Below are positions 2,395 to 20,393 of a stretch of DNA of 22,227 nucleotides, piece after piece. The DNA is taken from the NCBI GenBank assembly GCA_964510165.1, contig CAZEBC010000012.1:23395-45621 (forward strand). The letters are read 5' to 3'. Every line of letters begins with the position of its first letter. The first letter of the stretch is position 1. This stretch comes from an uncultured bacterium (GTDB taxonomy: Bacteria; Abyssobacteria; SURF-5). The notes under the pieces are model-generated. The model saw only the letters and a list, made by a program, of their open reading frames with translations, had not been told where the DNA came from and made no database searches. The position numbers were made by a program, and so were the translations under genes.

Positions 2395-3882
2395 ATGCAC
2401 ACGAGAGTCTTGACCGGTATCCATAGTCTCGAGCCATCCCGTGTTCACCTGATCGAGCGCCCAGGCCTATCCCCCGTTGCCGTCTGTCGGCAGCCTCTGC
2501 CAAACCATCTTAAACCCAGGGATTTGCTGGGCGCGCTCGAGGGCAGAACTCACTTGTTCTTGCTCGAAAGCGCCGACGGCCCCCTGAAAATGGCCCGCTA
2601 TTCAATTGTCGGGTGCGACCCCGTTCTCAGCTTTCGCGCCAAGCGCTCGCAGTGCACGGTGACCGATTCAACCGGCGCGCGCACCTGGCGGGGAAGCCCC
2701 ATTGAAAGCCTTCGAGAGATATTGAAGCCTTACGCGGTTCCGAGACGGCAATTTTTGCCCGTGTTCTTCGGGGGCGCCGTCGGGTTATTCTCTTACGACA
2801 TGAAAAATTATTTCGAAGTATTGCCCGATGCCGCCACTGATGATCTGGACCTGCCCGACTGCTACAGCGTGCTGGTGGACACCGTCGTCGTGTTCGATAA
2901 GAAAGAAGGCACGGCCGAGATCATTGCCAGCGAGTTTCACTCCGATAACCCTTCGGTCTCACAAGTCAAAGCCGAGGCGAAGGCGATGGCGATGCTCCAG
3001 AAGATCAATGCCGGTCTGGCTCGCCCATTCGAGGCCAGGCAGATCAGGTTCGGAGAGGTAACTTCGACCCACACACCGGAAAAATATTCCGAGATGGTCG
3101 AGCGAGCAAGAGAATACATTGCGGCGGGCGACATCTTCCAGGCGAACCTCTCGCAGCGGCTGTGCTCGCGGTTCCAGGGAAGCCCAGTCGAACTCTACAT
3201 GAGGTTGTCCCAGATAAATCCGTCTCCGTTTGCGTTCTATTTCGACCTTGGCGATTTCCAGCTCGTGAGTTGTTCGCCCGAAAGGCTCATCTTGCTCAAC
3301 GACCGCAGCGTGGAAACCAGGCCTATTGCGGGCACCCGGCCGCGCGGGCGGACCGAGGCCGAAGACCTGAGGCTGCGCGACGAACTGATCCTCCATCCGA
3401 AAGAACGCGCCGAGCATATCATGATTGTCGACATGTCCCGAAACGATATCGGCCGCGTGTGCAAGTGCGGGTCTGTGAGACCGGACGAACTGATGGTCAT
3501 CGAGCAGTACTCCCACGTGTTCCACATCGTCTCGAACATCGTGGGCACCCTTGTTCCTGGCAAGGACTGCTTCGACCTGCTCGCGGCGGTGTTCCCCGGA
3601 GCCAGCATTACGGGTGTGCCGAAGATCAGGTGCATGGAGATAATAGACGAACTCGAGGCCGTCCGGCGCGGCCCCTACACCGGCTCGCTCGGATGGATTT
3701 CATTCTGCGGCGACATGGACCTCAACATCATCATTCGCACCTTCGTCATCAAGGACGGTCACGCTTACATCCAGGTGGGAGGCGGAATCGTGGCCGATTC
3801 CGAGCCGGAACGCGAATATCATGAGAGTCTGAGCAAAGCGCAGGCGCTGGTCGAAGCGCTGAAGACCGGGGAGCGAATGTGA
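2395..3882 (+). CDS. pabB: Chorismate-binding synthase component I (aminodeoxychorismate synthase PabB / anthranilate synthase TrpE family)
   Basis: FLLESA, RYSIVG, GGAVGLFSYD, AGDIFQANLSQR, NPSPF, SCSPER, PIAGTRPRG, KERAEHIMIVDMSRND, FPGASITGVPKIR, RGPYTG, GGGIVADS. The family is secure. PabB rather than TrpE is inferred from the coupled class IV PLP gene. Confidence 0.8.
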   Translation: MHTRVLTGIHSLEPSRVHLIERPGLSPVAVCRQPLPNHLKPRDLLGALEGRTHLFLLESADGPLKMARYSIVGCDPVLSFRAKRSQCTVTDSTGARTWRGSPIESLREILKPYAVPRRQFLPVFFGGAVGLFSYDMKNYFEVLPDAATDDLDLPDCYSVLVDTVVVFDKKEGTAEIIASEFHSDNPSVSQVKAEAKAMAMLQKINAGLARPFEARQIRFGEVTSTHTPEKYSEMVERAREYIAAGDIFQANLSQRLCSRFQGSPVELYMRLSQINPSPFAFYFDLGDFQLVSCSPERLILLNDRSVETRPIAGTRPRGRTEAEDLRLRDELILHPKERAEHIMIVDMSRNDIGRVCKCGSVRPDELMVIEQYSHVFHIVSNIVGTLVPGKDCFDLLAAVFPGASITGVPKIRCMEIIDELEAVRRGPYTGSLGWISFCGDMDLNIIIRTFVIKDGHAYIQVGGGIVADSEPEREYHESLSKAQALVEALKTGERM

Positions 3883-4736
3883 AGGACCTGGTCTATCTCA
3901 ACGGACGGTTTATCCCGAGCGCCGACGCTCGCATTTCCATCTTCGACAGGGGATTCCTGTACGGCGATGGCGTCTTCGAGACGATGCGCGCGTACGACGG
4001 CCGCATCTTCAGGCTCGATGAACATATGGAGCGCCTGGCGCGGTCAGCCGAAATAATCGGCTTGAACCTGCCGGGCGGGCCGGAACGCTGCGCCGACATC
4101 TGCCGCCAGCTTCTCCTGCGCAATGAGGCGCGCGACGCGCTGCTCAGGCTGAGCGTGACGCGCGGCGAGGCCATCGGCGGAATAGGAATCAAGCGCGCGG
4201 CTGAACCGACCGTGATTGCCCACGTGAGGCCGCCAATGCCGCTCCCCGACGATGCATACCGCAACGGAGTCAGAGCGAAGATCGTCTCGATCAGGCGCAT
4301 CCCCTCAACCTCGCTCAATCCGCACATGAAATCCATGAATTTCCTCAATCAAATCCTGGCGCGGGCGGAAGCCGAAGCGTGCTGCGCCTATGACTCGATC
4401 ATGCTGAACCAGGCCGGACTCATAGCCGAAACCAGCACGGCGAACGTCTTCTTCGCGCGGGATCGCATGCTCTCTACACCCTCCCCCGATTGCGACATCT
4501 TATTAGGGATCACGAGGGCCACAGTGCTCGAACTGGCCGCCAAAACGGGAATTCGGTGTGAAGAGCGAGCGATCAAACCTTCCGAAATCGGCGCCTTCCA
4601 GGAGTGCTTTCTCACCAGCACGGGAATCGAGCTGCTTCCGGTCACCAGGATCAATGATTCCGAAGTGGGCGGCGGCGTGCCGGGCCCCCTGTATGAACGA
4701 CTGCATTCCGCATACCGCGAGCTTGTAATGGCATGA
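3879..4736 (+). CDS. PLP-dependent aminotransferase class IV (aminodeoxychorismate lyase PabC-like / IlvE-Dat family)
   Basis: DRGFLYGDGVFETMR, H.ERL.RSA, PLP-lysine region HMKSMNFL, ETSTANVF, LLGITR, ECFLTSTG. GTGA overlap with the upstream stop. Confidence 0.85.
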   Translation: MKDLVYLNGRFIPSADARISIFDRGFLYGDGVFETMRAYDGRIFRLDEHMERLARSAEIIGLNLPGGPERCADICRQLLLRNEARDALLRLSVTRGEAIGGIGIKRAAEPTVIAHVRPPMPLPDDAYRNGVRAKIVSIRRIPSTSLNPHMKSMNFLNQILARAEAEACCAYDSIMLNQAGLIAETSTANVFFARDRMLSTPSPDCDILLGITRATVLELAAKTGIRCEERAIKPSEIGAFQECFLTSTGIELLPVTRINDSEVGGGVPGPLYERLHSAYRELVMA

Positions 4737-5233
4737 TTGAGATGGACCTCAGCCGCGATGTCACGTTCGAAGACCTCTCGGTGGACCACCTGTCGGACGT
4801 GCTCGAAATCGAACGCCTCAGCTTCAAGACGCCGTGGAGCAAGTTCGCGTTCATACACGAGATCGAGTTCGAGAAATCGGTGTTCAAGGTCCTGAAGCTC
4901 AAGGGCAGGCTCGTGGGATACGGCGGCTTCTGGCACATTCTTGACGAAATACACATCTCCAATATCGCGATCCATCCGGACTATCGGAGGCGCGGCCTCG
5001 GCAAGATGCTTCTCACCCATCTGCTCGAAGAAGCCGTCGCCAGGGGCGCCGCAAAGGCTTCTCTCGAGGTCCGCCGCTCGAACACCGCGGCCCGGCACAT
5101 GTACGAGAAGCTCGGTTTCAAGGTGGTGACCGTCAGGAAGAATTATTATGTGCCCGAGGGTGAGGATGCCCTCGTCATGTGGAACGATGACATCCGCTCC
5201 GCGTTGTCTACAATAAGCGAAAACATCGTGTAA
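4733..5233 (+). CDS. rimI: Ribosomal-protein-alanine N-acetyltransferase RimI (GNAT)
   Basis: IERLSFKTPWS, DEIHISNIAIHPDYRRRGLG, LEVRRSN..A..MYEKLGF, RKNYY...EDALVM. ATGA overlap. Confidence 0.92.
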   Translation: MIEMDLSRDVTFEDLSVDHLSDVLEIERLSFKTPWSKFAFIHEIEFEKSVFKVLKLKGRLVGYGGFWHILDEIHISNIAIHPDYRRRGLGKMLLTHLLEEAVARGAAKASLEVRRSNTAARHMYEKLGFKVVTVRKNYYVPEGEDALVMWNDDIRSALSTISENIV

Positions 5234-5919
5234 TGATGGACGCGACCCCATTTGCTGAGCGTAACTTCCGCGCGCTCGAAACCATTTATCGCTTCTATCA
5301 AGATATCGCTGAATCCCTCGGTCCGTGGGCCTGCAATTCCGGATGCTCCGAGTGCTGCACCGCGTTGGCCTCGTTGACCTCGCTGGAGGCGGCCCACATG
5401 TGGGGTATGTATGCGACGACCCTTAATCAGCGCATACAGGCATGGCCCGACCCTGGCTCCCTGGCGCCGCTCGCCGTGACTGCGAATGAACTTGCGGGAC
5501 AATGCCTCCTGAAAGAAGAAACAGAACAGCAAGCGGAACCATCTTCACCGTATCCCTGCCCCCTCTTGTCCGACGGGCGATGCCTGTGTTACGAGGCTCG
5601 GCCGCTTATGTGTCGAGTGCTGTACTCGTCGGTCCGATGCGCGGAGAGCGGCTACGCCCAGATGCCCCCGCAATTGCTCTCGTTAAGCACGGTCTGTCTG
5701 CAGCTTGTCGAGAACTTGGACCGCGCAGGCTGTTCGGGGTATCTTGTCCACGTGTTGCCGCTCTTTTCAGACCGACGGTTCTTCGACGCATACCGGGAAC
5801 ACCGGCCATTATCAGCGACCAGAGTTGTGCGACCGAACGCGCCAAATCCCGGCTTGCTTGTGCCGCCGGAGCACCAAGGACAGATACGGGCATGGCTGCG
5901 GCGTCTGCATGAACTGTAG
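5233..5919 (+). CDS. YkgJ/UPF0153-like cysteine-cluster (CxxxCxxCC) putative Zn/Fe-S protein
   Basis: ACNSGCSECC, CPLLSDGRCLCYEARPLMCR. TAATG overlap with rimI. Confidence 0.8.
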   Translation: MMDATPFAERNFRALETIYRFYQDIAESLGPWACNSGCSECCTALASLTSLEAAHMWGMYATTLNQRIQAWPDPGSLAPLAVTANELAGQCLLKEETEQQAEPSSPYPCPLLSDGRCLCYEARPLMCRVLYSSVRCAESGYAQMPPQLLSLSTVCLQLVENLDRAGCSGYLVHVLPLFSDRRFFDAYREHRPLSATRVVRPNAPNPGLLVPPEHQGQIRAWLRRLHEL

Positions 5920-5954
5920 GAATTTCGGGGAATACGCGTTCACCTCGGTCCTAG

Positions 5955-5983
5955 TTGACTTAATCGGTCGGATATGTTATCAT
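5955..5983 (+). promoter_or_regulatory. Putative sigma70 promoter upstream of the structured leader and cytochrome operon
   Basis: TTGACT (5955-5960)-N17-TATCAT (5978-5983) with an extended -10 TG. Confidence 0.7.
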
Positions 5984-6012
5984 TGCGCCACGGATAGATT
6001 TCAATATAGTGA

Positions 6013-6168
6013 GTTCCGGCGCATACCCATATGCTGGCTGGAACAAAGGAGGATACGACCGGCACGAATTCCACCTCTCCGTCCACCCGGCCGTGGTAAC
6101 TAAGTCCTCCTCCTCAGACATGAACGGGGGACAGCGCTCGCAAAAGGCTCTCTCCGTTCCCTGTTTGT
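6013..6168 (+). ncRNA. Candidate structured leader RNA or sRNA (three hairpins, the last terminator-like); no family recognised
   Basis: Hand-paired stems: 6013-6025/6030-6044, 6048-6062/6087-6110, and 6122-6130/6151-6159 followed by CCTGTTTG. Lies just downstream of a good promoter. Confidence 0.4.
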
Positions 6169-6262
6169 GCTCATCCACCCCGAGAGTGTCCCAAAAGATA
6201 AAATAATGACAAAATGAAACTGTTATCATACTGCGACAAGAAAAACACGCGAGGGCTCTGCC

Positions 6263-7411
6263 ATGCACAGGTTGGCGCTGTTGAGTGTTGCTGCGATTAT
6301 TGTGGGCCTCACCTCACCGCTCTCGGGGCAGATTCAGATAGCGAGCGAACCCGGTGACACGGTTGAATTCTCATCAAGCGCAACCTGCGCGAAATGTCAC
6401 AGGGACATCTACAAATATTGGAAGGATTCGCTGCACGCCAAGGCTCTGGAAGACTACATCTTTGATGCTGCCTTCATGATGGCGCTCAAGCAGAGAGGCG
6501 AGCAGGCCAGGGCACTTTGTCTGGGCTGTCATTCGCCCACGACCCGCGTAACCGGCGATGTCATGCTTCAACGGGCGATATCCGCCGAAGCCATCACGTG
6601 CGATTTCTGTCATCGGGTCAAGTCGGTCTCACTCGAGGGAGGCCAAAACAAGGTAGTTCTCACATCTGGCAGCGAAAAATATGGTCCGCTTGAGCCGGGT
6701 CTCAGCGCCGATTCGCACCCCTCTGTCCAATCCGACCTGTTCGCTAAATCGGAGATGTGCGCCGCGTGTCATCAATGGTCCAACTCTCACGGAATAGCGA
6801 TATTCAATACATATCGGGAGTGGCTCGACAGTCCGTTTCCGGCCAAACAGACGCATTGCCAGGACTGCCACATGCCGCTTGTAGAGGGGACTCTTGTCGC
6901 GGATAAACCGAAAGGGAAGGGCGAGCTGATTAACTCCCACAATCTTGCCGGAGGCCATTCGATAGAACAGGTCTCCGCCGCCGCGACCGTGCGAATCGCG
7001 TCCGTCACCGAAGTGCCGGCTGGACTGCGGGCCGTCGTCGAGGTGAGCAACGTCGGCTCCGGTCACATGATCCCGACCGGCATCCCATCACGCGAACTGG
7101 TGCTTCAGGTCCAGCTTGTAGACCAGAGGGGCATCGTTCTTGAGACTCGCGAGCATATCTTCAAGCGAGTCATCACGGATGATGAACATAATGAACTCAT
7201 GACCGACGCAGATATCATACTGAACGGCGCATCGGTGTCCAAGGACAATCGAATACCGCCCGGCGGTTCCGTTCAGGTCCCGTTCAGTCTGGCGGCGGCC
7301 CACGGCAGGAAATACACAGTTCGGGCGGCGCTCCGTTACCGGTACAGGCCGCTCGTCATCAAGGAAGAGGAGATTTCCATAGAGATGGGCTCTGAATCGA
7401 GGCGTCCGTGA
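6263..7411 (+). CDS. Exported pentaheme cytochrome c (c554-like heme region plus heme-free C-terminal domain)
   Basis: N-terminal signal peptide. Five CxxCH motifs: CAKCH, CLGCH, CDFCH, CAACH, CQDCH. C-terminal part contains NVGSGHMIPTG and DNRIPP. Confidence 0.9.
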   Translation: MHRLALLSVAAIIVGLTSPLSGQIQIASEPGDTVEFSSSATCAKCHRDIYKYWKDSLHAKALEDYIFDAAFMMALKQRGEQARALCLGCHSPTTRVTGDVMLQRAISAEAITCDFCHRVKSVSLEGGQNKVVLTSGSEKYGPLEPGLSADSHPSVQSDLFAKSEMCAACHQWSNSHGIAIFNTYREWLDSPFPAKQTHCQDCHMPLVEGTLVADKPKGKGELINSHNLAGGHSIEQVSAAATVRIASVTEVPAGLRAVVEVSNVGSGHMIPTGIPSRELVLQVQLVDQRGIVLETREHIFKRVITDDEHNELMTDADIILNGASVSKDNRIPPGGSVQVPFSLAAAHGRKYTVRAALRYRYRPLVIKEEEISIEMGSESRRP

Positions 7412-7431
7412 CTCTTAAAGGAGGAATTGAA

Positions 7432-7881
7432 TTGGCGGAGGAAACCAGCAACGGGAAATCCCGGCGTTCCTTTCTGAACTATTGCATCGGAGCGAGTTCG
7501 CTCACGTTTTTCGCATTTGTCGGCTATATGGTTGGCAAGTACATGTTCCCGCCCGGCGTGCTCAGCGCCGAGACCGAAACGGGGACGGCCCGGCTTGCGC
7601 TCTCGGAACTGCCGGTAGGCAGCGCGAAAGTAATGCGCTACAAGGGCGAGCCTGCCATAGTCGTCCGCACAGGCGACAGGACGATCCGCGCCCTCTCCGC
7701 CGTGTGCACGCATCTGGGCTGCATCGTGAAATGGGACAGCGCCAAGAACATGTTGGTATGCCCTTGCCATGCCGCCTTGTTCGATCTCAATGGCAACGTC
7801 GTCGGGGGACCGGCCCCCAGGCCTCTCGCCAGCTTTCCGGCCAAAATCGCGGGTGATGAAGTCGTAGTAGGAGAGGCGTAA
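7432..7881 (+). CDS. petC: Rieske 2Fe-2S subunit of a Rieske/cytochrome b complex
   Basis: Twin-arginine SRRSFL plus TM helix, CTHLGC, CPCH, GPAPRPL. Start moved from 7408 to the in-frame TTG at 7432, which follows AAAGGAGGA. Confidence 0.93.
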   Translation: MAEETSNGKSRRSFLNYCIGASSLTFFAFVGYMVGKYMFPPGVLSAETETGTARLALSELPVGSAKVMRYKGEPAIVVRTGDRTIRALSAVCTHLGCIVKWDSAKNMLVCPCHAALFDLNGNVVGGPAPRPLASFPAKIAGDEVVVGEA

Positions 7882-7884
7882 CAC

Positions 7885-8628
7885 ATGGAGACGCGAGATA
7901 AGCGAACCACAGAAGAACAAGAGAAGATGAGTTTCGAGCAGCGCTCCGGACTGCGGGAGCTGTTCGAGCTGTTTTCACTCACTGGCTTTGTCTATGGCCC
8001 CCTTGACCAGCGGCTCGGTATCCGTGACGCGCTCGAGAAGAATCTGAAGAAGCCCGTCCCGCACCACGTCAATTGGCTGTTCTGTTTCGGCGGCCTGTCG
8101 CTCTTTCTGTTCATCATCCAGGCCGTGACCGGCGTGCTGCTGCTCATGTATTACCGGCCGACCATAGCCGAAGCGTACAAGAGCGTGGTGTTCATCACCA
8201 ACAACGTGCCTTTCGGCTGGCTCGTCAGAGGGCTGCATCACTGGGCCGCCAATCTGATGATAGTCATGGTGTTTCTCCACATGGCCCGCGTGTTCTTCTA
8301 CGGCGCGTACAAACCGCCGCGCGATTTCAACTGGGTGACCGGCGTCATATTGCTGATGCTCACGCTCGGGTTCGGGTTTACCGGTTACCTGCTTCCCTGG
8401 AATCAGATATCTTATTGGGCGACCACGGTGGGAACAGAGGCCCCCGGCGCAGTGCCGGTCATCGGAGGATACCTGACGATGCTAATACGAGGCGGGCAGG
8501 AGGTGGGCCAGACCACGCTCACCCGCTTCTTTGCCGTGCATGTCGTCATTCTGCCGCTTTTCATCAGCTTCTTCCTGCTCGGACACTTTTTCATGATCCG
8601 AAAACAGGGTATAGCGGGGCCGCTGTAA
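7885..8628 (+). CDS. petB: Cytochrome b6-type subunit (N-terminal half of a split cytochrome b)
   Basis: VNWLFCFGG (heme ci Cys position), LHHWAANLM...LHMARVF, TGYLLPWNQISYWA, H-x14-H in helix D, b6-like C-terminus IRKQGIAGPL. Confidence 0.95.
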   Translation: METRDKRTTEEQEKMSFEQRSGLRELFELFSLTGFVYGPLDQRLGIRDALEKNLKKPVPHHVNWLFCFGGLSLFLFIIQAVTGVLLLMYYRPTIAEAYKSVVFITNNVPFGWLVRGLHHWAANLMIVMVFLHMARVFFYGAYKPPRDFNWVTGVILLMLTLGFGFTGYLLPWNQISYWATTVGTEAPGAVPVIGGYLTMLIRGGQEVGQTTLTRFFAVHVVILPLFISFFLLGHFFMIRKQGIAGPL

Positions 8629-8654
8629 TTACCGCTTCTTTGGAGGAGAGAGCC

Positions 8655-9083
8655 ATGTCGGACGAACTGGACAAGGAACACGCGGAGGAGGGTGAACCCT
8701 TCTTCCCGAACCATGTGGTCCATCAGCTAATGATGATCTTCGTTCTGCTCGCGGTGCTCGTCGTGCTGGTGATGTTCTTTCCGGCGCCCATGGAGCCGCC
8801 GGCCGACCCCTTCGAGACGCCCGAGCATATCAAACCCGAATGGTATTTCCTCTCGGCCTACCAGGCGCTTAAGATAGCCGAGTACTTCTCGTTTCTCGGC
8901 GCCTGGGCGCCAAAGGTGCTCGGAATACTCGCGCAGATCGGAGGGATCGGCATTCTCATCTTGTTGCCGTTCCTGGACAAAAACCCGAAGCGCCATCCTC
9001 GCGAGAGGCCCGTCGTCATCGGCCTGGGAATACTGGCGCTCATCATGCTCGCCGTCCTCACCATCTGGGGGAAAATATCATGA
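8655..9083 (+). CDS. petD: Cytochrome b6 subunit IV (C-terminal half of the split cytochrome b)
   Basis: ATG at 8655 after GGAGGAG (the track ORF starting at 8073 is over-extended). PFFPNH, PADPFETPEHIKPEWYFL, LLPFLD; three hydrophobic helices; no fused heme c. Confidence 0.93.
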   Translation: MSDELDKEHAEEGEPFFPNHVVHQLMMIFVLLAVLVVLVMFFPAPMEPPADPFETPEHIKPEWYFLSAYQALKIAEYFSFLGAWAPKVLGILAQIGGIGILILLPFLDKNPKRHPRERPVVIGLGILALIMLAVLTIWGKIS

Positions 9084-10339
9084 TATCGGCGTGGAAGCGG
9101 CATCTCGTGCTCTTCATGGTCGCAGCCGGCTCGCTGACACTCGCCCAAACCGGCCTGGCTCAACAGGAGAGTTCCTGCGTCAATTGTCATCGCGAACTTC
9201 AAGACGAGAAACTGTCACCGCCCGTGGAGGATTGGCTCCGGAGCGTTCATAAGGGCGCCGGAGTTGGCTGCCACTCTTGCCACGGAGGCGACCCCAATGT
9301 TCCCGACATCATGGCCATGGCGACCGACGATTACATCGGTGTGCCGTCTGTGAAACAGGTCCCCGAACTGTGCGGCTCATGCCACTCCGACGCGGACAAG
9401 ATGCGCAAGTACAACCTGCGCGTTGACGAATATCAACTGTTCCGACGAAGCGGCCACGGACGCGCGCTCTACGAACGAGGCGACACCAAGGTCGCTACCT
9501 GCGTGAGCTGTCACGGCGCGCACAAGATACTCAAGAAAGAAGACGTCGAATCGCCGGTGCATTACACCAATATCGCGCGGACCTGCGGCGCATGTCACGC
9601 CGACCCTGCCTACATGGAAGGGTACGGATTGCCCACCAATCAGGTGGCCGAATACAGCGAGAGTTACCACGCGAAGATACTCCGGGGCGAGATAGAGGGC
9701 AAGAATCCGGCGCTTGCGCCCACCTGCGCGAGCTGCCACACCCACAGCCCGCTTCTGCCCGAAGCGGTCGAAGTCCCCGAAATCTGCGGCAGATGCCATA
9801 CCGTGACCGCGAGCTATTATAAAGACGGGCCTCATTACGAGTCATTGACCGAAGTGGGCGTGCCCCGATGTGTAGACTGTCACGGAAACCACTTGATCAA
9901 GTATCCGACCGCAGAGATGTTCTCAGGCGTAGAGGAGGGGCGCTGCGGGTCGTGTCACGACTCGGGTTCGGAAGCGTATCAACTGGGCCAGAAGGTACGC
10001 AGCCAATTGGAGATCGCGGCCGAAAAAGTGCAGATCATGGAACGAGAGCTCGCCGACATAGAGCATTCCGGTCGCAACTTGAGCGACCTGCAGACTCTCA
10101 CCGAGGAGGCTCAGACAAGCCTGACCGAGGTGCTTCCCATAACCCATACGCTTTCGCAGGAGCGGATCACGGAACGAACCAGCCTCGTCATCGAGAAAGC
10201 GGACGCGCTGCTGGCGACGGTGAACCAGTTCAAAGCCGAGCTCAGGGCGCGCAAGAGAAACATGGCGATCATCCTGGCTGTCATTCTGGTTAACATCGGC
10301 CTTCTGTACATGAAGCGTCGCTCGATGGAGAAGGGATAG
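9080..10339 (+). CDS. Nonaheme cytochrome c with a helical stalk and C-terminal membrane anchor
   Basis: Signal peptide. Nine CxxCH motifs: CVNCH, CHSCH, CGSCH, CVSCH, CGACH, CASCH, CGRCH, CVDCH, CGSCH. Then ~95 aa of charged helix and MAIILAVILVNIGLLYMKRR. ATGA overlap with subunit IV. Confidence 0.92.
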   Translation: MISAWKRHLVLFMVAAGSLTLAQTGLAQQESSCVNCHRELQDEKLSPPVEDWLRSVHKGAGVGCHSCHGGDPNVPDIMAMATDDYIGVPSVKQVPELCGSCHSDADKMRKYNLRVDEYQLFRRSGHGRALYERGDTKVATCVSCHGAHKILKKEDVESPVHYTNIARTCGACHADPAYMEGYGLPTNQVAEYSESYHAKILRGEIEGKNPALAPTCASCHTHSPLLPEAVEVPEICGRCHTVTASYYKDGPHYESLTEVGVPRCVDCHGNHLIKYPTAEMFSGVEEGRCGSCHDSGSEAYQLGQKVRSQLEIAAEKVQIMERELADIEHSGRNLSDLQTLTEEAQTSLTEVLPITHTLSQERITERTSLVIEKADALLATVNQFKAELRARKRNMAIILAVILVNIGLLYMKRRSMEKG

Positions 10340-10350
10340 CGTAATCAGAT

Positions 10351-10379
10351 TGGGGACACCATCCGACATGGTGTCCCCA
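10351..10379. terminator. Perfect 12-bp hairpin between convergent genes (probable bidirectional terminator)
   Basis: TGGGGACACCAT-ccgac-ATGGTGTCCCCA, between the cytochrome operon and the end of carB. U-tails are weak. Confidence 0.7.
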
Positions 10380-10401
10380 GTTCAATCTTCCAACTGTCAG
10401 C

Positions 10402-13602
<3,201 letters not shown>

Positions 13603-13897: not shown

Positions 13898-14049
13898 TCC
13901 GCCGCTAATAGCAATTGGCCACACTTATATGCGATCGGTCATGACCGTGTCCTTGCGCGACCAAGTCGTTATTGCATCCATCCAGAGCAGATTCCCGGCA
14001 TCCGGGAACACGAGACAGCGGCCCCTCTCTACCATTGGAGGAAACTCTG

Positions 14050-15045
14050 ATGAGCGTCGACTCCACTGAAATCACCGTTCTCAAGGATACCCTGCTGAGC
14101 CGCGAGGAGGAACTGAAGGCCTGCAAGAACACATTGTCCGACAGGGACAGGCAGCTCGCCGCCCTGAAGGAGGAACTCAGACAGACCCGTTCCAAACTTG
14201 AGGAAAAGATCGAACGCCTCCACACCCTGATCAGCGTCGGAAACAGCATGAATTCCACGCTCGAGCTGGACCCATTGCTGACCTACCTGATGACATGCGC
14301 AACGAAAGTCATGAAAGCCAAGGACAGCAGCTTGATGCTCGTGGACGAGCGCACAAATGAACTTGTGTTCAAGATTACCATGGGTGAGAAGGGCAGCCTC
14401 GTCCAGGAATTCCGTCTGAGGATGGGGCAGGGCATTGCGGGCCAGGTCGCCTTGACGGGCGAGCCCATTGTGGTCACCGACACCTCAAAGGACGCCCGAT
14501 TTGAGAGTTCCATCGACAAGGCGGTCGGCTTCGAAACGAAATCCATCATGTGCGTTCCAATCAAGTTGCGCGACAAGGTCATCGGCGTGATCGAAGTGCT
14601 TAACGCAGGCTATAGTGGACCGCTCTCCGAGGAGGACCTCGACATCTTTTCCGCCTTTGCGGGCGCCGCCGGCGTCGCGCTGCAAAACGCGCGTCTGTTC
14701 TCTGCCATTCAGCACTCGGTCGAGCATATCTGCACCATGCTCAACTCCGGAGCGCTCATGACCGATGAGAACGGCGAACTCGTGATGATAAACAGGATTG
14801 CCAGAGGACTTTTGGGCTTCGACGACACCGAGCCGGTCACCGTCCAGGATATAAGCGAACTCAAGGCGGACAAGAACATCGTTTCCCTCATCCAGAAAGT
14901 TTTCGAGCAATCGAAGTCAATGAAGGAAAAGATCGCGCTCACTACGGCAGCCGGCAAGAAGAAAGCCATAGAGGTTGAAGTAACCCCGGTGATCGACCCG
15001 CACGGCATGAAGATAGGGACCGTCGCCGTGCTCAACGCCAAATAA
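14050..15045 (+). CDS. Coiled-coil-GAF-PAS sensory protein with no catalytic output domain
   Basis: ATG at 14050 after GGAGG. N-terminal heptad coiled coil. GAF domain (SSLMLVD, GQGIAGQVA.TGEP, D.RF, TKSIMCVPI, VIGVIEVLN, ALQNARL). PAS-like domain (GALMTDENGELVMINRIARGLLG, EVEVTPVID..G..IGTVAVL), then a stop. Confidence 0.85.
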   Translation: MSVDSTEITVLKDTLLSREEELKACKNTLSDRDRQLAALKEELRQTRSKLEEKIERLHTLISVGNSMNSTLELDPLLTYLMTCATKVMKAKDSSLMLVDERTNELVFKITMGEKGSLVQEFRLRMGQGIAGQVALTGEPIVVTDTSKDARFESSIDKAVGFETKSIMCVPIKLRDKVIGVIEVLNAGYSGPLSEEDLDIFSAFAGAAGVALQNARLFSAIQHSVEHICTMLNSGALMTDENGELVMINRIARGLLGFDDTEPVTVQDISELKADKNIVSLIQKVFEQSKSMKEKIALTTAAGKKKAIEVEVTPVIDPHGMKIGTVAVLNAK

Positions 15046-15074
15046 CTTTCTCGGCATACTGCGGAGAGCAAGCC

Positions 15075-15683
15075 ATGTGCACCAGGAATCCTTCCCGTCG
15101 CGACACTCCATTTGTCCATTGGCTCGCAATGATGCGCCGCACGGACGGGCTGTCCATGATCGAACTGATCGTCGCCTTTGTCGTCCTGCAGGTCGCCATT
15201 GTCACGTTCGCTCAACTGTTCACGGCAGGGCTTGACTTTTCGCGCAACGTCCGCCGCATCGAGCTGGCTCAGTTGCTGGCTCACACCAAGATGGAAGACC
15301 TTCTGCGAACCATCCCGGCCGATTCCACCCTTCAGCCCGCGCCCGACGAGCCCGATGCCGTCGTGCTTGTCACTCCCCGGCCCGCTTCCTTCGAGGCAGC
15401 CGCCCATGTCCATTCCGAGGACCTCGAACGGTTCCGGTGGCTGGCTGAAACCCGCAGAGTGCCGGATACCGAAAACCTGGTCGGCGTCACACTCTATGTC
15501 TACACCATAGACACGTGGGAGAAGGGCGACAAACTGACCGGGGCGGAGGAAGATTTCTACATCTCCGATGACCGCGAACGATTCACATATACCTACACCC
15601 CCTCGGGCAGTAACACGGTCCAATTCATGAGAGGAAGAGAAAAGCTGAGGATCAGCAGCGCCGTCACGCTCCCAGTACACTAG
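15075..15683 (+). CDS. Prepilin-type minor pseudopilin (GspI/PilV-like)
   Basis: Class III signal RRTDG|LSMIELIVAFVVL with Glu at +5, then A..LA..KME.L. The start could instead be at 15129 or 15132. Confidence 0.75.
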   Translation: MCTRNPSRRDTPFVHWLAMMRRTDGLSMIELIVAFVVLQVAIVTFAQLFTAGLDFSRNVRRIELAQLLAHTKMEDLLRTIPADSTLQPAPDEPDAVVLVTPRPASFEAAAHVHSEDLERFRWLAETRRVPDTENLVGVTLYVYTIDTWEKGDKLTGAEEDFYISDDRERFTYTYTPSGSNTVQFMRGREKLRISSAVTLPVH

Positions 15684-15702
15684 CGGACGAAGGGGAACCG
15701 AT

Positions 15703-16359
15703 ATGAAAATGCGCCGACATTCTAGTGCCGGAATGACCATAGTCGAGACGGTCGTCGTGATCGCAATCCTCGGCATTTTCATGGCAATCGCGGTGCCGAG
15801 CGTCATGAAGGCATACCGCGCCATGAAGCAGGCCGAGCGGATTACGCTGCGCTATCCCAATGCATGGCATGCCCTAGACACAATCTCGACCACTCTTCGG
15901 CGAGCCTATCCGCAGCGCGTCGCGAATGTCGCCTTCGAGGGCCGCAACGATTCGTATGAGGCGGGCGGGATTAAGATTCCTTCCGACGCGCTCAGTTTTC
16001 CGGTGTTTGATACCGCCTACGCCGCCTTCGGGTCGGTCCAGAAGCTCTCCTACCGACTTGAGCGCCCGCAAGACGGCGGCGTTGGCGCCTTGGTCCAGAT
16101 TCGGTCCTCCATCGCGGGAGACGATGTGGAAGGCGGCGTCAGGGAAACCCTGATCGAGGGCATAATAGGTTTCGATATAAGTTATCTGGACGGATCAGTC
16201 GAGCCGGAGCAATGGGTAACCCAATGGCCGCCGGTGTCGGAACCGGCGACCTCGCAACCGGACCGTCCGAAAGCCGTTAGAATGACCGTCTTGTTGCTGC
16301 AGGATTTGGCGCTCGCGCCAACCGCGTTTTCAACAGTCGTGAATGTGCCGACGAGCTAG
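15703..16359 (+). CDS. Prepilin-type minor pseudopilin (GspJ/PilW-like)
   Basis: AG|MTIVETVVVIAILGIF with Glu at +5. GspJ-like C-terminal pattern LIEGIIGFDISYLD...W...W...PKAVRMTV. Confidence 0.8.
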   Translation: MKMRRHSSAGMTIVETVVVIAILGIFMAIAVPSVMKAYRAMKQAERITLRYPNAWHALDTISTTLRRAYPQRVANVAFEGRNDSYEAGGIKIPSDALSFPVFDTAYAAFGSVQKLSYRLERPQDGGVGALVQIRSSIAGDDVEGGVRETLIEGIIGFDISYLDGSVEPEQWVTQWPPVSEPATSQPDRPKAVRMTVLLLQDLALAPTAFSTVVNVPTS

Positions 16360-16384
16360 TTCACGTTCGAAAGGAGGGACACCG

Positions 16385-17257
16385 GTGAGGGCCACAGGTC
16401 GAAGCGGAGTCGCCATCCTGGCGGCGTTGGGCGTTCTTGCGATCCTGGGAATCCTGGCAAGCGCCTTCCTGGCTTTCATGAAACTGGAGGCCGCCTTTGC
16501 CACGCGAGACGCTCAGCAACTCAAGGCCCATTACCTGGCCGTGGCCGGAGTTCAGAATGCGATCGCGCTTCTCGAAGCCGATGAGCCCAACATTGACGCA
16601 CATTCCGACCCTTGGTGGCTCGGCGAATCGCCCGAATTGCAACCTATGGGAGACGGCGGCTATACCCTCACCATCACTGACGAGTCGGCGCGACTGAACG
16701 TGCTGAATGCGCCTCCGCCGGCTCTCAGCGCCATTTTGGGCGGTGACAACGAGGCCGTCGCCTCGCTCGTGAATTTCCGGGCCTCCGCCACGCTGTTTTC
16801 CATCGAAGATTTCGTGGGGGCCAACCTGGGCGCCGAGGCCTATTCCAGGCTCATGGCGCTCGGCACTGTGCACGGAGACGGAAGGGTCAACATCAATACC
16901 GCTAACGCCGACGTGCTGGCAGCTCTTCCCGGAATGGATGCCGAGACCGCCCAACGCATAGTCGACTTCCGAAATGGGGCCGACGGGATTGAGGGAACCA
17001 CTGACGACTTTGTGTTCGCCGCGCCTTCTGACCTGGCAAAGACGCCGGGGCTCACTCCCATCCGGCTCGCTCCTGCGCTCGCAATGATGAAGGTGAGTTC
17101 AGACACCTTCCGCGTGCAGGCAGTCGGCTCCATCCATGCCGGAGCGGACCGACCGGGTCAGGGGGAACGAAGAGTAGTCAGCAACCAGAAGATCAGCGCT
17201 CTGCTTCGACGCGGCGATGATAACAAAGTAACGATACTGCTGTGGGAAGGCTCTTGA
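16385..17257 (+). CDS. gspK: GspK-like minor pseudopilin
   Basis: GTG at 16385 after AAGGAGG. SG|VAILAALGVLAIL (no Glu at +5, typical of GspK), AHYLAVAGV, ITDESARLNV, RVNINTA..VLAALPGM, SDTFRVQAVG. Confidence 0.85.
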   Translation: MRATGRSGVAILAALGVLAILGILASAFLAFMKLEAAFATRDAQQLKAHYLAVAGVQNAIALLEADEPNIDAHSDPWWLGESPELQPMGDGGYTLTITDESARLNVLNAPPPALSAILGGDNEAVASLVNFRASATLFSIEDFVGANLGAEAYSRLMALGTVHGDGRVNINTANADVLAALPGMDAETAQRIVDFRNGADGIEGTTDDFVFAAPSDLAKTPGLTPIRLAPALAMMKVSSDTFRVQAVGSIHAGADRPGQGERRVVSNQKISALLRRGDDNKVTILLWEGS

Positions 17258-17301
17258 TTGCAGTAAACCGCGGAAAACCATAGTGTCGGGAGCAAAAGAA
17301 T

Positions 17302-18612
17302 ATGAGCGATTCCGAAGAAAAGACCGTGGTCGTTGAAGAAAAAAGCGAGGATGTGCTCCAGAAAAAGCTCGAAAAAGAACTCCATCTCGAGCAAAAGGCG
17401 GCAGCCGCCGGAGAAGTCCTCAAGAAGAAACTGCTCGAGCGGATCGGAGGCTCTGTCGATAGTGTGCAGCCCGTGCTGCTCGTGTCGGCCGTTATCGAGC
17501 TTGCCGTAAACTCCAGAGGAACCGATATCCATTTTGACCCTGCCGAATCCGGCCTTGTCGCTCGCCTCCGCATCGACGGAATGCTGCATGACGTGCTCGC
17601 GATCCCAAAACGGCTGCAGCCAAACGTGGTCGCCCGCGTCAAGGTGCTCGCCGAAATGGACATCTCTGAAACACGCCGCCCGCAGGACGGTCATATTTCC
17701 ATGTCCATCGGAGAACGGCGCTTCGACCTCAGAGTCTCAGCACTCCCCACCTTCAGGGGCGAAAAGCTCACTCTCCGCGTGCTCGACTCTACCGGCGGAA
17801 TCCCAAAGCTGAGAGAGCTCGGAATGGAGTACAGCGACCGGATCGTGTACGAAGACATGATCACCAAGCCTCAGGGAATGACCCTTGTGACCGGGCCCAC
17901 GGGCTCGGGCAAGACCACCACGCTCTATGCCTCGCTCGAACGCATTAATCATCGTACCTACAACATCATCACGCTCGAAGACCCTGTCGAGTACCAGCTT
18001 AAGGGCATCAACCAGGTCCAGATAAACCCTGCGATCGAACTGACCTTCGCAAGCACATTGCGCGCGTCCCTCAGACAAGACCCTGACACGATTCTGGTCG
18101 GCGAGATACGAGACCTTGAAACCGCAGCTATCGCCATCAGGGCCGCCATGACCGGACACCGCGTCTTCAGCACCATCCACGCCAACACCGCGCCCGACGC
18201 AATCAATACCCTGATAAACATGAACGTGCGCCCATTCCTCATTTGCAGTTCCGTCCTTTGTATCCTCGCGCAACGATTGGTCAGAAGGCTGTGCTCCCAG
18301 TGCAAAGAAGCCTATGAACCCGAACCTGAACTGCTTGAGGAACTCGGCGTCAAGAATAAGGTCACCGTGTACCGAGCGACGGGATGCGACAGTTGCAACA
18401 ATACGGGATACCTCGGCCGGACCGCGGTGTATGAACTCCTTCGGAACACGCCGTCCCTCAAGCGCGCAATCCTCGCTGAGAAACCGCTCGACCACATCAT
18501 TAAGATCGCCCGTTCCGAGGGAATGAAAAGCCTCTTCGAGAGGGGTGTCAACAAGATCCTCGACGGAACAACGAGCGTGGAGGAGGTTATCAGGGTCCTC
18601 AAGATCGATTGA
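17302..18612 (+). CDS. gspE: GspE/PilB-family assembly ATPase 1 (lacks the usual N1 domain)
   Basis: TDIHFDP, RIDGML, RRPQDG, Walker A GPTGSGKTTT, TLEDPVE, LRQDPDTILVGEIRD, His box TGHRVFSTIH, AQRLVR, zinc motif CSQC...CDSC. Confidence 0.93.
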   Translation: MSDSEEKTVVVEEKSEDVLQKKLEKELHLEQKAAAAGEVLKKKLLERIGGSVDSVQPVLLVSAVIELAVNSRGTDIHFDPAESGLVARLRIDGMLHDVLAIPKRLQPNVVARVKVLAEMDISETRRPQDGHISMSIGERRFDLRVSALPTFRGEKLTLRVLDSTGGIPKLRELGMEYSDRIVYEDMITKPQGMTLVTGPTGSGKTTTLYASLERINHRTYNIITLEDPVEYQLKGINQVQINPAIELTFASTLRASLRQDPDTILVGEIRDLETAAIAIRAAMTGHRVFSTIHANTAPDAINTLINMNVRPFLICSSVLCILAQRLVRRLCSQCKEAYEPEPELLEELGVKNKVTVYRATGCDSCNNTGYLGRTAVYELLRNTPSLKRAILAEKPLDHIIKIARSEGMKSLFERGVNKILDGTTSVEEVIRVLKID

Positions 18613-18714
18613 GAGCCTGTGGGTGAGATGGGCGCGAGCTTACGGCGAAGACCTGTGAAATGAGGGCCCACTAGACGACCGGGGAAAAATTCGTCAAGAT
18701 ACAGAGAAGGTTGA

Positions 18715-20328: not shown

Positions 20329-20393
20329 GCGCGGGGGTTCCTGCCCGCGCAATGTCACGCGGCGGTCGCCAATGGTAGGGAGGAACGATACCA

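Follow-up and report, generated by a model that had tools for sequence, protein, structure and literature searches.

The question raised by this locus is which protein serves as the c-type partner of a Rieske/cytochrome b complex whose genes are accompanied by neither cytochrome c1 nor cytochrome f. In the window, i.e., the whole stretch of 22,227 nucleotides that was analyzed, ORF prediction and Pfam searches identified five close-set genes on the forward strand (6263–10339), with the content that an earlier sequence-only reading had given them. The first gene encodes a pentaheme cytochrome, MHC5 (6263–7411; 382 aa, five CxxCH), and overlaps by GTGA (7408–7411) with the Rieske gene (7408–7881; 157 aa, CTHLGC and CPCH). 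A gap of 3 nt (7882–7884) leads to cytochrome b6 (7885–8628; 247 aa) and one of 26 nt (8629–8654) to subunit IV (8655–9083; 142 aa), whose true start is the ATG at 8655, preceded by the ribosome-binding site GGAGGAGAG, and whose stop codon lies in an ATGA overlap (9080–9083) with the start of the nonaheme cytochrome MHC9 (9080–10339; 419 aa, nine CxxCH). Pfam assigned the three inner genes to Rieske (E = 5e-16), Cytochrome_B (3e-61) and Cytochrom_B_C (2.3e-18), and both outer genes to multiheme c families.

When the whole window was translated in six frames (44,450 residues), 14 CxxCH motifs were counted, five in MHC5 and nine in MHC9, a concentration far above chance. Therefore, no mono- or diheme cytochrome c is encoded in the window, and none of the 20 large ORFs scanned with Pfam matched a cytochrome c1 or f family; the absence of cytochrome c1/f had been read correctly from the letters. 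A Pfam scan of the ORFs also found no terminal reductase gene in the window. The operon most likely encodes a membrane quinol-oxidizing b6-type complex with a nine-heme anchored cytochrome in place of the usual one-heme partner. On balance, we favor a four-subunit b6-type quinol:cytochrome c oxidoreductase, most likely menaquinol-using, together with one soluble partner.

Judged by its motifs, the core is a b6-type Rieske/cytochrome b complex. Pfam, NCBIfam and an alignment with 2zt9 agreed on a split b6-type cytochrome b with a PEWY-bearing subunit IV, as first proposed, and the Pfam and NCBIfam matches of the core genes are to b6f-type subunits (47.9 bits to cytb6_f_IV for subunit IV; 86 bits to PetC, under the cut-off, for the Rieske protein). 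Cytochrome b6 is of the four-helix type and aligned without gaps with the solved b6 (2zt9; E = 1.9e-71). Its heme-b ligands H118/H132 and H219/H234 are spaced as in cyanobacterial b6, and C67-F-G-G70 is the CxGG motif at which heme cn is bound. Across 67 cytochrome b sequences (alignment A5), C67, G69, G70, H118, H132 and H234 were invariant, and H219, the fourth heme-b histidine, was at least 90% conserved. Subunit IV carries the Qo-site motif P61-E-W-Y64, in which W63 was invariant and P61 and Y64 were conserved at 90% or more (alignment A4). In the Rieske protein, a twin-arginine motif (RRSFL) accompanies a membrane helix at the N terminus; box I reads C100-T-H-L-G-C105, and box II reads C118-P-C-H121-A-A123-L-F125 (alignment A3). 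Ala123 and Phe125 occupy the positions of the Ser/Tyr pair, described in PMC12954380 as raising the Rieske potential, and the pair is absent. According to the account in PMC4122944, a Rieske protein without this pair fits a low-potential, menaquinol-type complex. Menaquinone is the quinone most likely used.

MHC9 consists of a signal peptide, a heme domain (residues ~30–297), a helical hairpin (298–357) and one long C-terminal helix that ends in a membrane anchor (~392–414) followed by KRR; its AF2 model reached a pLDDT of 93.3. The family comprises 397 representative clusters at E ≤ 1e-30, some of them automatically named "quinol-cytochrome-c reductase, cytochrome c subunit," and a hydrophobic C-terminal anchor was found in 97 of 105 homologues. 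Cytochrome_B and/or Cytochrom_B_C was fused N-terminally to the MHC9 part in five of the 12 long homologues scanned, and one 790-aa fusion protein joins b, IV and MHC9; these sequences are predictions from metagenomes, and some of the fusions may be artefacts of assembly or frameshifts. When the Rieske protein, cytochrome b6, subunit IV and MHC9 were predicted as one complex, the score was 0.68 compared with 0.48 for the best control, and three runs shared at least 96% of contacts, with a partner pLDDT of at least 81. The predicted contacts place MHC9 residues 391–416 against residues 18–46 of subunit IV and 19–37 of the Rieske protein, and few of them touch cytochrome b. The pass is marginal, with a difference of exactly +0.20 from the best control. 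Among solved complexes, 116 of 157 attained the mark, as did two of 215 mismatched pairs; these counts are rough because custom alignments and four chains were used. The pass may also partly reflect the known structures of b6f and bc1, in which cytochromes are anchored by their C termini.

Of 80 related loci retrieved with cytochrome b, 20 have an MHC9 homologue directly after subunit IV or after a b+IV fusion. These loci carry several phylum labels, and 19 of the 20 homologues have nine CxxCH; the MHC9 version at a Schekmanbacteria locus (L008) has five. The cluster begins with an MHC5 homologue in nine of the 80 loci, and the complete five-gene order is kept in seven. The multiheme genes are thus conserved near the core, in line with the earlier reading. 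On the cytochrome b tree (44 rows), the MHC9 label changes three times compared with 14.9 times in shuffles (0 of 500 as low), and the MHC9 tree gives the same starred clades as the cytochrome b tree. MHC9 is missing from nine Nitrospirota/Leptospirillia loci within the same part of the cytochrome b tree, and at two Nitrospinota loci (L026, L027), which have MHC5, Rieske, b and IV, it was not found in ~5.5 kb downstream; the lineage to which this cytochrome b belongs can do without MHC9. Neither MHC9 nor MHC5 homologues were found at any of 47 Bacillota-type loci (L032, L033, L036–L080). Because MHC9 is co-inherited with cytochrome b, occurs in fusions to cytochrome b and subunit IV, and has its anchor predicted on subunit IV and the Rieske protein, it is most likely an integral c-subunit replacing cytochrome f/c1. 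The two multihemes do lie on either side of the core as originally described, but mere bracketing does not do justice to MHC9. The design, i.e., a b6-type core with a nonaheme and a soluble pentaheme cytochrome, is common among uncultured anaerobes and has had no bench study so far.

In three relatives (L007, L015, L022), the cluster lies beside b561 proteins and large multiheme cytochromes resembling NapC/NirT, types of protein that serve in extracellular electron exchange.

In the complex that we favor, the Rieske protein, cytochrome b6 and subunit IV would form a quinol-oxidizing, proton-translocating core running the Q cycle, with two b hemes and a covalently bound heme cn held by cytochrome b6. 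MHC9, presumably exported via its signal peptide, would sit where cytochrome f/c1 otherwise does and be kept in the complex by its C-terminal transmembrane helix beside subunit IV and the Rieske anchor, its nine hemes forming a chain into the periplasm from the mobile Rieske cluster, whose acceptor it would be. The next carrier would be MHC5, a putative soluble periplasmic protein with all-bis-His hemes and an Ig-like docking domain, which may pass electrons to partners with genes at other sites in the genome, either terminal reductases or further multiheme proteins. The general proposal that such a complex connects the quinone pool with a multiheme module in the periplasm is upheld, and a precedent exists in anammox complexes, in which, as described in PMC12954380, hexa- or octaheme cytochromes c with a transmembrane helix replace cytochrome f.

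Electrons would flow from quinol outward in this complex. Bis-His multiheme chains usually have a low potential, and eight of the nine MHC9 hemes appear to be bis-His, so that transfer from the Rieske protein (cluster near +120 mV) to MHC9/MHC5 could be uphill. The title of a solved relative of MHC5, as given in a reference list, calls it "low-potential." Such chains would suit low-potential donors in a reverse run, in which Fe(II), reduced sulfur or a partner cell in the periplasm or outside the cell would deliver electrons via MHC5 and MHC9 to the Rieske protein and, with consumption of proton-motive force, on to the quinone pool. The NapC/NirT-like and b561 neighbors of the three relatives would fit this direction, and the sequence fixes neither. 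We nevertheless consider a reverse run unlikely: the core retains all forward Q-cycle features (PEWY, CxGG, four heme-b His), a donor below the menaquinone potential would need no Rieske/b complex to reduce quinone, and no outer-membrane porin or conduit gene was found in the window by the Pfam scan of the ORFs.

The favored outward path treats MHC9 as a wire. In 105 sequences (alignment A1), eight of its nine CxxCH motifs were invariant and the first was present in 104, while eight non-motif histidines were invariant, for nine hemes. The sixth position of one heme might thus be vacant or atypical, and a small substrate (nitrite, NO, hydroxylamine or a sulfur oxyanion) could be reduced there, which would make MHC9 an enzyme as well as a wire and the complex a quinol:substrate reductase, by analogy with a proposed anammox complex containing an HAO-like subunit. 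The best Foldseek matches of the MHC9 model, hydroxylamine oxidoreductases and nitrite reductases, point weakly in this direction (6t5e: E = 2.5e-3, TM = 0.40), as does a 60-residue stretch that matches octaheme nitrite reductase (E = 7e-7). However, Foldseek returned no match at E ≤ 0.001, all nine motifs are CxxCH with no CxxCK among them, and the ninth ligand could be the conserved Met108 (103 of 105) or Met179 (102 of 105), in which case the heme would be of the ordinary His/Met kind. An enzymatic MHC9 is therefore doubtful at best.

In MHC5, a signal peptide at the N terminus is followed by a helical cap that holds the five hemes, and an Ig-like beta-sandwich (~241–380) forms the C-terminal part; the protein matches Cytochrome_C554 in Pfam. 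Its fold (AF2 model, pLDDT 92.1) is that of Thermochromatium tepidum cytochrome c552 (5ZE8) and of MccSep (Geobacter ExtKL). Cytochrome c552, grouped with PtdA among the closest known systems, was the best match both by structure (full-length Foldseek E = 1.5e-19, TM = 0.71) and by sequence (E = 2.3e-16), with an identity of only 21%; like MHC5, it has five hemes, a C-terminal beta-sandwich and a non-Cys residue at the MccSep Sec position. The text of 10.1101/2023.11.21.568154 describes its function as unknown. The conserved non-motif histidines H58, H152, H226, H232 and H268 of MHC5 are sixth-ligand candidates for all five hemes. Since MHC5 lacks the catalytic Sec/Cys of MccSep and its Cys ligand, it is most likely an electron carrier.

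A polysulfide/selenite reductase role like that of MccSep, with the operon as a quinol:polysulfide reductase system, is highly improbable and was rejected: the two proteins share a domain plan and the Ig-domain motif G-H-x-[IV]-P-x-G-x-P, ExtKL is the best NCBIfam family of MHC5, and the relevant passages of PMC5877670 and 10.1101/2025.11.18.688581 place extKL at the head of a cluster with Rieske, cytochrome b and SUIV-like genes and leave the electron donor of MccSep unidentified, but MHC5 scored 64.9 bits with the ExtKL family (cut-off, 250), Ile274 aligns with Sec325 (Cys in 0 of 115 homologues), MHC5 has no Cys outside its five CxxCH and hence no counterpart of the heme-ligating Cys239, and activity is described as lost in the MccSep variants U325A, U325C and C239H.

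No biochemically characterized ortholog was found, which agrees with the initial impression that the exact arrangement matches no characterized complex. It is nonetheless less singular than had been implied, given the 397 MHC9 clusters, their automatic names and the Geobacter extKL...OPQ genes, which follow the same logic. The closest known systems are the Geobacter ext/Cbc6 cluster, compared through published descriptions and NCBIfam profiles, and the anammox Rieske/cytochrome b complexes. As described in PMC5877670 and PMC2825233, the extKLMNOPQS "bc complex" of Geobacter sulfurreducens (GSU2937–GSU2930, later named Cbc6) resembles the window in a leading pentaheme protein with a beta-sandwich domain, a Rieske protein (ExtO), a short cytochrome b (ExtP), a subunit-IV-like ExtQ, surrounding multiheme cytochromes and the lack of cytochrome c1/f. 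The cytochrome b of the window scored 272.8 bits against NCBIfam ExtP, slightly below the cut-off of 290. Unlike the window, the published cluster has 12-heme and 10-heme cytochromes before the Rieske gene, places a small lipoprotein cytochrome behind ExtQ and also includes genes for a porin and a rhodanese-like protein, and its ExtKL is a Sec enzyme, whereas MHC5 has no Sec and subunit IV is followed by the C-terminally anchored nonaheme MHC9, for which no NCBIfam Ext family was matched at E ≤ 0.01.

The anammox complexes compared (Kuenenia Kuste4569–4574 and Kustd1480–1485) resemble the window in their four-helix, b6-like cytochrome b, which carries heme cN, and in having the SUIV-like subunit as a protein of its own. 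In the account of PMC12954380, they differ in an NAD(P) oxidoreductase subunit, for which the window holds no gene, in a five-helix SUIV, compared with 142 aa here, and in Rieske proteins of high potential (+303 and +335 mV) in which the serine is retained, whereas the window protein lacks both Ser and Tyr. Cyanobacterial and chloroplast b6f share with the window the division into b6 and subunit IV, PEWY, a CxGG site for heme cn and the spacing of the heme ligands. The window differs in lacking cytochrome f, in the probably low potential of its Rieske protein and in its fourteen additional c hemes. In the cytochrome b tree, the Firmicute b6c (QcrABC) and heliobacterial complexes (L032–L080) form the next group, at 45–52% identity. 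These have a split cytochrome b and use menaquinol as substrate, and their c-type heme sits either on a fusion with subunit IV or on a diheme protein.

The operon had also been placed between a promoter and a hairpin, of which the latter holds. Five promoter-like sites were found in 5850–10480 compared with 1.9 expected, and the sigma-70-like candidate on the forward strand at 5955–5983 (TTGACT-17-TATCAT; the −10 is preceded by TG), which lies 280 nt ahead of the first start codon, is weakly indicated by a consensus match at 10 of 12 positions. At the other end, a GC-rich hairpin with no strand assigned (10348–10382; exact palindrome 10352–10378) lies between the convergent genes MHC9 and carB; the terminator scan gave no call there because a T-run is absent. 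This hairpin folds at −28 kcal/mol (z-score −5.07; none of 200 shuffles folded as well), occurs as a single copy in the window and probably marks the end of the operon.

The feature at positions 6263–10339 of the window comprises five genes on the forward strand, encoding a pentaheme cytochrome (MHC5; 6263–7411, 382 aa, five CxxCH), a Rieske protein (7408–7881, 157 aa; Pfam Rieske, E 5e-16), cytochrome b6 (7885–8628, 247 aa; Pfam Cytochrome_B), subunit IV (8655–9083, 142 aa; Pfam Cytochrom_B_C) and a nonaheme cytochrome (MHC9; 9080–10339, 419 aa, nine CxxCH), with both cytochromes matching multiheme-c families in Pfam. The junctions are, in gene order, a GTGA overlap, gaps of 3 and 26 nt and an ATGA overlap, which bears out the tight packing of five genes described in the sequence-only reading. 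Subunit IV has an ORF of its own, separate from that of b6; its true start is the ATG at 8655, preceded by GGAGGAGAG, and a longer frame from 8073 was discarded as an artefact. A six-frame translation of the 22-kb window (44,450 residues) contained 14 CxxCH motifs, all of them in MHC5 and MHC9, so that the heme count is not due to chance and no further cytochrome with one or two hemes is concealed in the vicinity. A match to the cytochrome f or cytochrome c1 families (Pfam) was obtained for none of the 20 window ORFs. With all 14 motifs placed, the window differs from b6f complexes sensu stricto and from bc1 complexes in having no cytochrome f or c1 subunit, just as had been claimed from the sequence. 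The cluster had also been placed between a promoter and a hairpin. The hairpin (10348–10382, −28 kcal/mol, z −5.07) is strong and occurs as a single copy in the window; it has no T-run and was not called by the terminator scan. This part of the claim stood, whereas the promoter-like site (5955–5983) is only weakly indicated. No Rfam family matched in the window. The feature is thus real, and it had been correctly described and read in the right direction.

Judged by its sequence, the core formed by the Rieske protein, cytochrome b6 and subunit IV is that of a b6-type Rieske/cytochrome b complex. The four-helix cytochrome b could be aligned with solved b6 of cyanobacteria and plants without any gap (E 1.9e-71), compared with about 1e-38 for the long bc1 cytochromes b, and its histidine pairs for hemes bp and bn, H118/H132 and H219/H234, have b6 spacing. 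The Qo-site motif P[ED]W[YF] is present in subunit IV as P61-E-W-Y64, in agreement with the earlier description of a split, b6-type cytochrome b with PEWY. Residues C67-F-G-G70 of cytochrome b correspond to CxGG, the motif that holds the covalent heme cn in b6f and firmicute complexes (Dibrova et al. 2017, PMC5600118). C67, G69 and G70 were invariant in 67 sequences, and C67 is a putative attachment site of heme cn. As far as a comparison by description allows, the traits of the window fit those of 'subfamily G' in the same study, for which a short cytochrome b, CxGG and an occurrence in mixed phyla are described, including Planctomycetes and Nitrospinae (PMC5600118).

The Rieske protein has a leader of the twin-arginine type and both cluster boxes, C100-T-H-L-G-C105 (CxHxGC) and C118-P-C-H121 (CxCH), in which C100, H102, C105, C118, C120 and H121 were invariant among 33 aligned sequences. 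Ala123 and Phe125 are found at the positions of the Ser/Tyr pair that lifts the potential of the Rieske cluster via hydrogen bonding (PMC12954380). Since the Rieske potential correlates with the type of quinone used (PMC4122944), these residues point to an enzyme that is probably of low potential and oxidises menaquinol.

MHC9 is most likely a subunit of this complex. To examine its linkage to the core, 80 genomic loci retrieved with the window's cytochrome b as query (L001–L080) were annotated by BLAST against the window proteins. An MHC9 homologue directly followed subunit IV, or a fused b + IV gene, in 20 of the 80 loci (L001–L010, L015, L016, L022, L025, L028–L031, L034 and L035), with exactly nine CxxCH in 19 of them and five in L008. 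The titles of these records name Abyssobacteria, 'Poribacteria', Thermodesulfobacteriota, Schekmanbacteria, Nitrospirota, Deferrimicrobiaceae, 'Limnocylindria', Planctomycetota and a deltaproteobacterium. An MHC5 homologue came first in the cluster in 9/80 loci (L001–L006, L009, L026 and L027), and the full five-gene order was found in 7/80; the multiheme genes therefore also stand beside the core in relatives. In a 44-row cytochrome b tree (covering the window, L001–L035 and 8 of the 45 loci L036–L080, with 37 near-duplicates omitted), the MHC9 label required 3 changes, compared with a mean of 14.9 for shuffled labels, and not one of 500 shuffles was as low. A tree of 21 MHC9 proteins displayed the same well-supported groups as the cytochrome b tree, which shows that the two genes were passed on jointly.

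The MHC9 family proved to be large. Among 1.84 billion representatives, 3340, 1633 and 397 proteins were matched at E ≤ 1e-3, 1e-10 and 1e-30, respectively, most of them 400–450 aa long and aligned end to end. Eight of the nine CxxCH motifs were invariant in 105 aligned homologues and the first one was present in 104; nine CxxCH were counted in 93 of these proteins, 11 in 11 and eight in one, and a C-terminal hydrophobic stretch was found in 97. In five of 12 unusually long homologues the MHC9 part was preceded, on its N-terminal side, by domains of cytochrome b, subunit IV or both; one of these five, a 790-aa protein, consists of b, IV and MHC9. The remaining seven homologues had extra heme domains only. 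As subunit IV ends on the periplasmic side in b6f structures, fusions between subunit IV and MHC9 are topologically sensible; some of them could be artefacts, because the source consists of predicted metagenome proteins. The atlas clusters nearest to MHC9 have been automatically named 'putative quinol-cytochrome-c reductase, cytochrome c subunit' and 'part of pet operon', so that the same assignment as a subunit is already present in annotation. Acidobacteriota are among the carriers to which atlas clusters point.

In the AF2 model of MHC9 (pLDDT 93.3) the heme domain is followed by a helical hairpin and then by a long helix that ends in a membrane anchor. When the complex of Rieske protein, b6, subunit IV and MHC9 was predicted, it scored 0.68 compared with 0.48 for the best control (margin +0.20), with contact agreement between runs of at least 96% and partner pLDDT of at least 81. 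The predicted contacts place the MHC9 anchor (391–416) against helix 1 of subunit IV (18–46) and the Rieske helix (19–37). Among 157 solved complexes, 116 reach the mark for this score, as do 2 of 215 mismatched pairs; these figures apply only roughly here because our own alignments and four chains were used. The prediction marginally supports binding of MHC9 and is not proof of it, and the pass may partly be owed to solved complexes with a C-terminally anchored cytochrome f or c1. No PDB fold matched MHC9 at E ≤ 0.001 (best E 2.5e-3, TM 0.40), and by sequence only 60 residues of MHC9 could be matched to an octaheme nitrite reductase, which is too little to assign MHC9 to a known fold family.

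MHC9 is not obligatory in its cytochrome b lineage. Nine Nitrospirota/Leptospirillia loci that belong to this region of the cytochrome b tree lack MHC9, and six of these nine had an ORF with one CxxCH upstream of the Rieske gene. Two Nitrospinota loci (L026 and L027) have the order MHC5-Rieske-b-IV, with no heme-bearing gene within 5–6 kb downstream; in these bacteria MHC5 itself may be the acceptor, or the c-subunit may be encoded elsewhere. The loci without MHC9 show that the c-type partner was swapped during evolution. In six other loci (L028–L031, L034 and L035) cytochrome b and subunit IV are fused (367–395 aa) and the nonaheme gene is still next; this fusion is an independent event within the nonaheme-type clade.

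MHC5 combines five CxxCH motifs with a C-terminal Ig-like domain, as does MccSep (ExtKL), the Sec-containing pentaheme polysulfide reductase of Geobacter. Its AF2 model (pLDDT 92.1) consists of a helical heme cap and a beta-sandwich and could be matched along its entire length to c552, the pentaheme cytochrome of Thermochromatium tepidum (Foldseek E 1.5e-19, TM 0.71; sequence E 2.3e-16). MccSep is periplasmic, and both Sec325 on its Ig-like domain and Cys239, which ligates heme 2, are reported to be essential (10.1101/2025.11.18.688581). Catalysis of the MccSep type was rejected for MHC5. The MHC5 segment G-S-G-H-M-I-P-T-G-I-P aligns to the motif of the MccSep Ig-domain (HMMER) with Ile274 at the position of Sec325, a column that is occupied by I, L, M, T or S and by Cys in 0 of 115 homologues. 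Likewise, MHC5 has no Cys outside its five CxxCH and hence no C239-type distal ligand of heme 2, and its best NCBIfam match, ExtKL NF040886, reached 64.9 bits, below the equivalog cut-off of 250. Conserved non-motif histidines are H58, H152, H226, H232 and H268. MHC5 thus belongs to the c552/MccSep fold family as a member that has either no catalytic function or a different one, and it is most simply regarded as a probable electron carrier.

We propose that menaquinol would be oxidised at a Qo site built by b6 and subunit IV. One electron would pass from the Rieske cluster to the nearest MHC9 heme, along the nine hemes and through MHC5 to reductases encoded elsewhere; the second would cross the membrane over hemes bp, bn and cn and reduce a quinone at the n-side, giving a proton-moving Q cycle. 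Energetics is the weak point of this mechanism. Eight of the nine hemes of MHC9 and all five of MHC5 look bis-His from their sequences, and bis-His multihemes are usually low in potential. Against this, the Rieske cluster is expected near +120 mV (PMC4122944).

Only eight non-motif histidines were invariant for the nine hemes in 105 homologues, in which Met108 and Met179 were conserved in 103 and 102 proteins, respectively. The heme without a conserved His may therefore be His/Met-ligated via Met108 or Met179, in which case it would be a natural entry point for electrons from the Rieske cluster. It may instead be an open, catalytic site. This possibility gains from the fact that MHC9 weakly resembles HAO and NrfA enzymes; on the other side, Met108 and Met179 are nearly invariant and MHC9 contains no CxxCK. 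Alternatively, the complex as a whole may run in reverse.

Rieske/cytochrome b complexes are central energy-coupling enzymes of respiration and photosynthesis, and to our knowledge all of the well-studied ones pass electrons to a high-potential one- or two-heme cytochrome. A multiheme cytochrome as partner of the Rieske protein is an idea already in print. It has been suggested that such cytochromes accepted electrons from the Rieske protein in early anaerobic bc complexes (Dibrova 2013 via PMC5317091), hexa- and octaheme cytochromes stand in for cytochrome f in anammox bacteria (PMC12954380), and the conserved Rieske/b cluster of Geobacter includes 5-, 12-, 10- and 2- or 4-heme cytochromes (PMC5877670, PMC2825233). 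The variant with an anchored nonaheme subunit differs from these. In contrast to the anammox complexes of Kuenenia, the window has a low-potential-type Rieske protein, a short subunit IV and no NAD(P) module, as no NAD(P) oxidoreductase domain was detected in 6263–10339 or in the flanking genes (Pfam). In contrast to the Geobacter cluster, it has no porin, rhodanese, 12- or 10-heme protein, its pentaheme protein is not a Sec enzyme and the anchored nonaheme subunit is present. The window's cytochrome b scored 272.8 bits on ExtP NF040969, under the equivalog cut-off of 290, and 282.8 on the generic cytochrome b6 model. A 'conserved nonaheme cytochrome' of Ferrigenium was rejected as an MHC9, since it has no signal peptide and its gene neighbours encode a membrane protein of five helices and a 4Fe-4S protein. 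No description of the nonaheme subunit was found in the literature searched; as this coverage was incomplete, the subunit is only tentatively and provisionally considered to be undescribed.

The complex bears on the question of how a Q cycle runs with a mostly bis-His heme chain as acceptor, the same question that is posed for the anammox complexes, and with its four subunits and without an NAD(P) module it offers a good and simpler test case. In addition, the pentaheme c552/MccSep fold family gains a candidate for its physiological partner; the sections consulted of the report on MccSep identify no electron donor for this enzyme in Geobacter (10.1101/2025.11.18.688581). The closest named relatives of the window's proteins are labelled Candidatus Abyssubacteria/Abyssobacteria (86% identity for cytochrome b, 81% for MHC9 and 76% for MHC5). 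According to the genome description of Candidatus Abyssubacteria, cytochrome c oxidase was not found and respiration is proposed to be anaerobic; the part of it consulted does not mention this complex, and the word 'Rieske' occurs 0 times in the whole paper (PMC6121073). The complex would accordingly be a missing piece of the anaerobic electron transport chain of this lineage, to which the window probably belongs.

The nonaheme family is widespread, with 397 representative clusters at E ≤ 1e-30 and with loci that carry several phylum labels; its inheritance is tightly linked to that of the core, and in some proteins the two are fused. A much broader reading can be considered, which we regard as rather unlikely. 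It holds that the family is a large, unstudied 'b6-c9' class that serves as the main quinol-oxidising coupling site of many uncultured anaerobic phyla and delivers menaquinol electrons straight into periplasmic multiheme networks, that the heme without a conserved His is a tuned, high-potential entry point for Rieske electrons or a catalytic site, and that the class preserves, in living organisms, the kind of low-potential bc complex coupled to multihemes that Dibrova and colleagues put forward as ancestral. If this were true, respiration on sulfur, nitrogen oxides or minerals would have its missing inner-membrane step in the b6-c9 complexes. The significance would grow if the odd heme were catalytic or if the family were a general quinol-oxidising coupling site of anaerobic multiheme respiration.

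The cluster is flanked by unrelated housekeeping genes. On the reverse strand lie mreC (3–947) and MreB (1123–2136, E 1.5e-155); a forward ORF of 433 aa at 1019–2320, the longest there, has no family match, overlaps MreB and was rejected as a shadow frame. The region 2395–5919 encodes a pabB-like chorismate-binding enzyme, a class IV aminotransferase (PabC-like), a GNAT protein and a protein of 228 aa whose CxxCxxCC match is weak. These genes overlap or abut and look like a small folate-precursor operon, which ends 344 nt before the cytochrome cluster; they are not found beside the cluster in relatives. Downstream of MHC9 follow a convergent carB, a GAF-PAS protein and then a pilus/secretion cluster (13972–21566; type IV pilus / type II secretion-like) with a PilV-like gene, T2SSJ- and T2SSK-like minor pilins, two T2SSE ATPases (one with MshEN) and a T2SSF platform protein. 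A PKD-domain protein on the reverse strand (21714–22226) continues past the window end. A T2SSE pair also occurs upstream of the cluster in L029 and L030, probably by coincidence.

A flank scan covered 88 flanking ORFs from 15 loci. The flanks of L001–L004 consist of housekeeping genes, with a PurN-like formyltransferase upstream, and have none in common with those of the window; none of the window's neighbour genes recurs beside the cluster in L001–L035. The differing flanks indicate that the five genes behave as a self-contained unit, and because they are non-recurring and of housekeeping type, synteny does not point to a terminal reductase for the window's clade. More distantly related loci of the MHC9 type carry varied modules. 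NapC/NirT-like cytochromes (11–16 CxxCH) and b561 proteins were found in L007, L008, L015 and L022, a c7-type triheme cytochrome in L009 and a c554-type tetraheme cytochrome in L010 and L022. NrfD and a molybdopterin oxidoreductase (Psr/Ttr/Arr-like) are encoded directly downstream of the nonaheme gene in L008 (6386–9589) and L009 (9719–12726), joined by a 4Fe-4S dicluster protein in L008 only; this set is absent from the window and is a possible terminal enzyme for the L008 and L009 versions. The varied modules suggest one quinol-oxidising engine serving different periplasmic or extracellular acceptors.

The NapC/NirT-like cytochrome with 11 CxxCH upstream of the Rieske gene in L007 (3615–5405) and L008 (1125–3011) starts with a Response_reg domain (Pfam; E 1.2e-14 and 7.6e-18, respectively). 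This could be an unusual redox-signalling design, in which a receiver in the cytoplasm is joined to a periplasmic heme chain anchored in the membrane, or a merger of two genes by ORF calling. The clusters of L015 (Deferrimicrobiaceae) and L016 (Limnocylindria, Chloroflexota) are near-identical, with branches of 0 and 0.025, suggesting a mis-binned contig or a very recent transfer. Finally, L002, a record titled Poribacteria, grouped with the Abyssobacteria-like loci.
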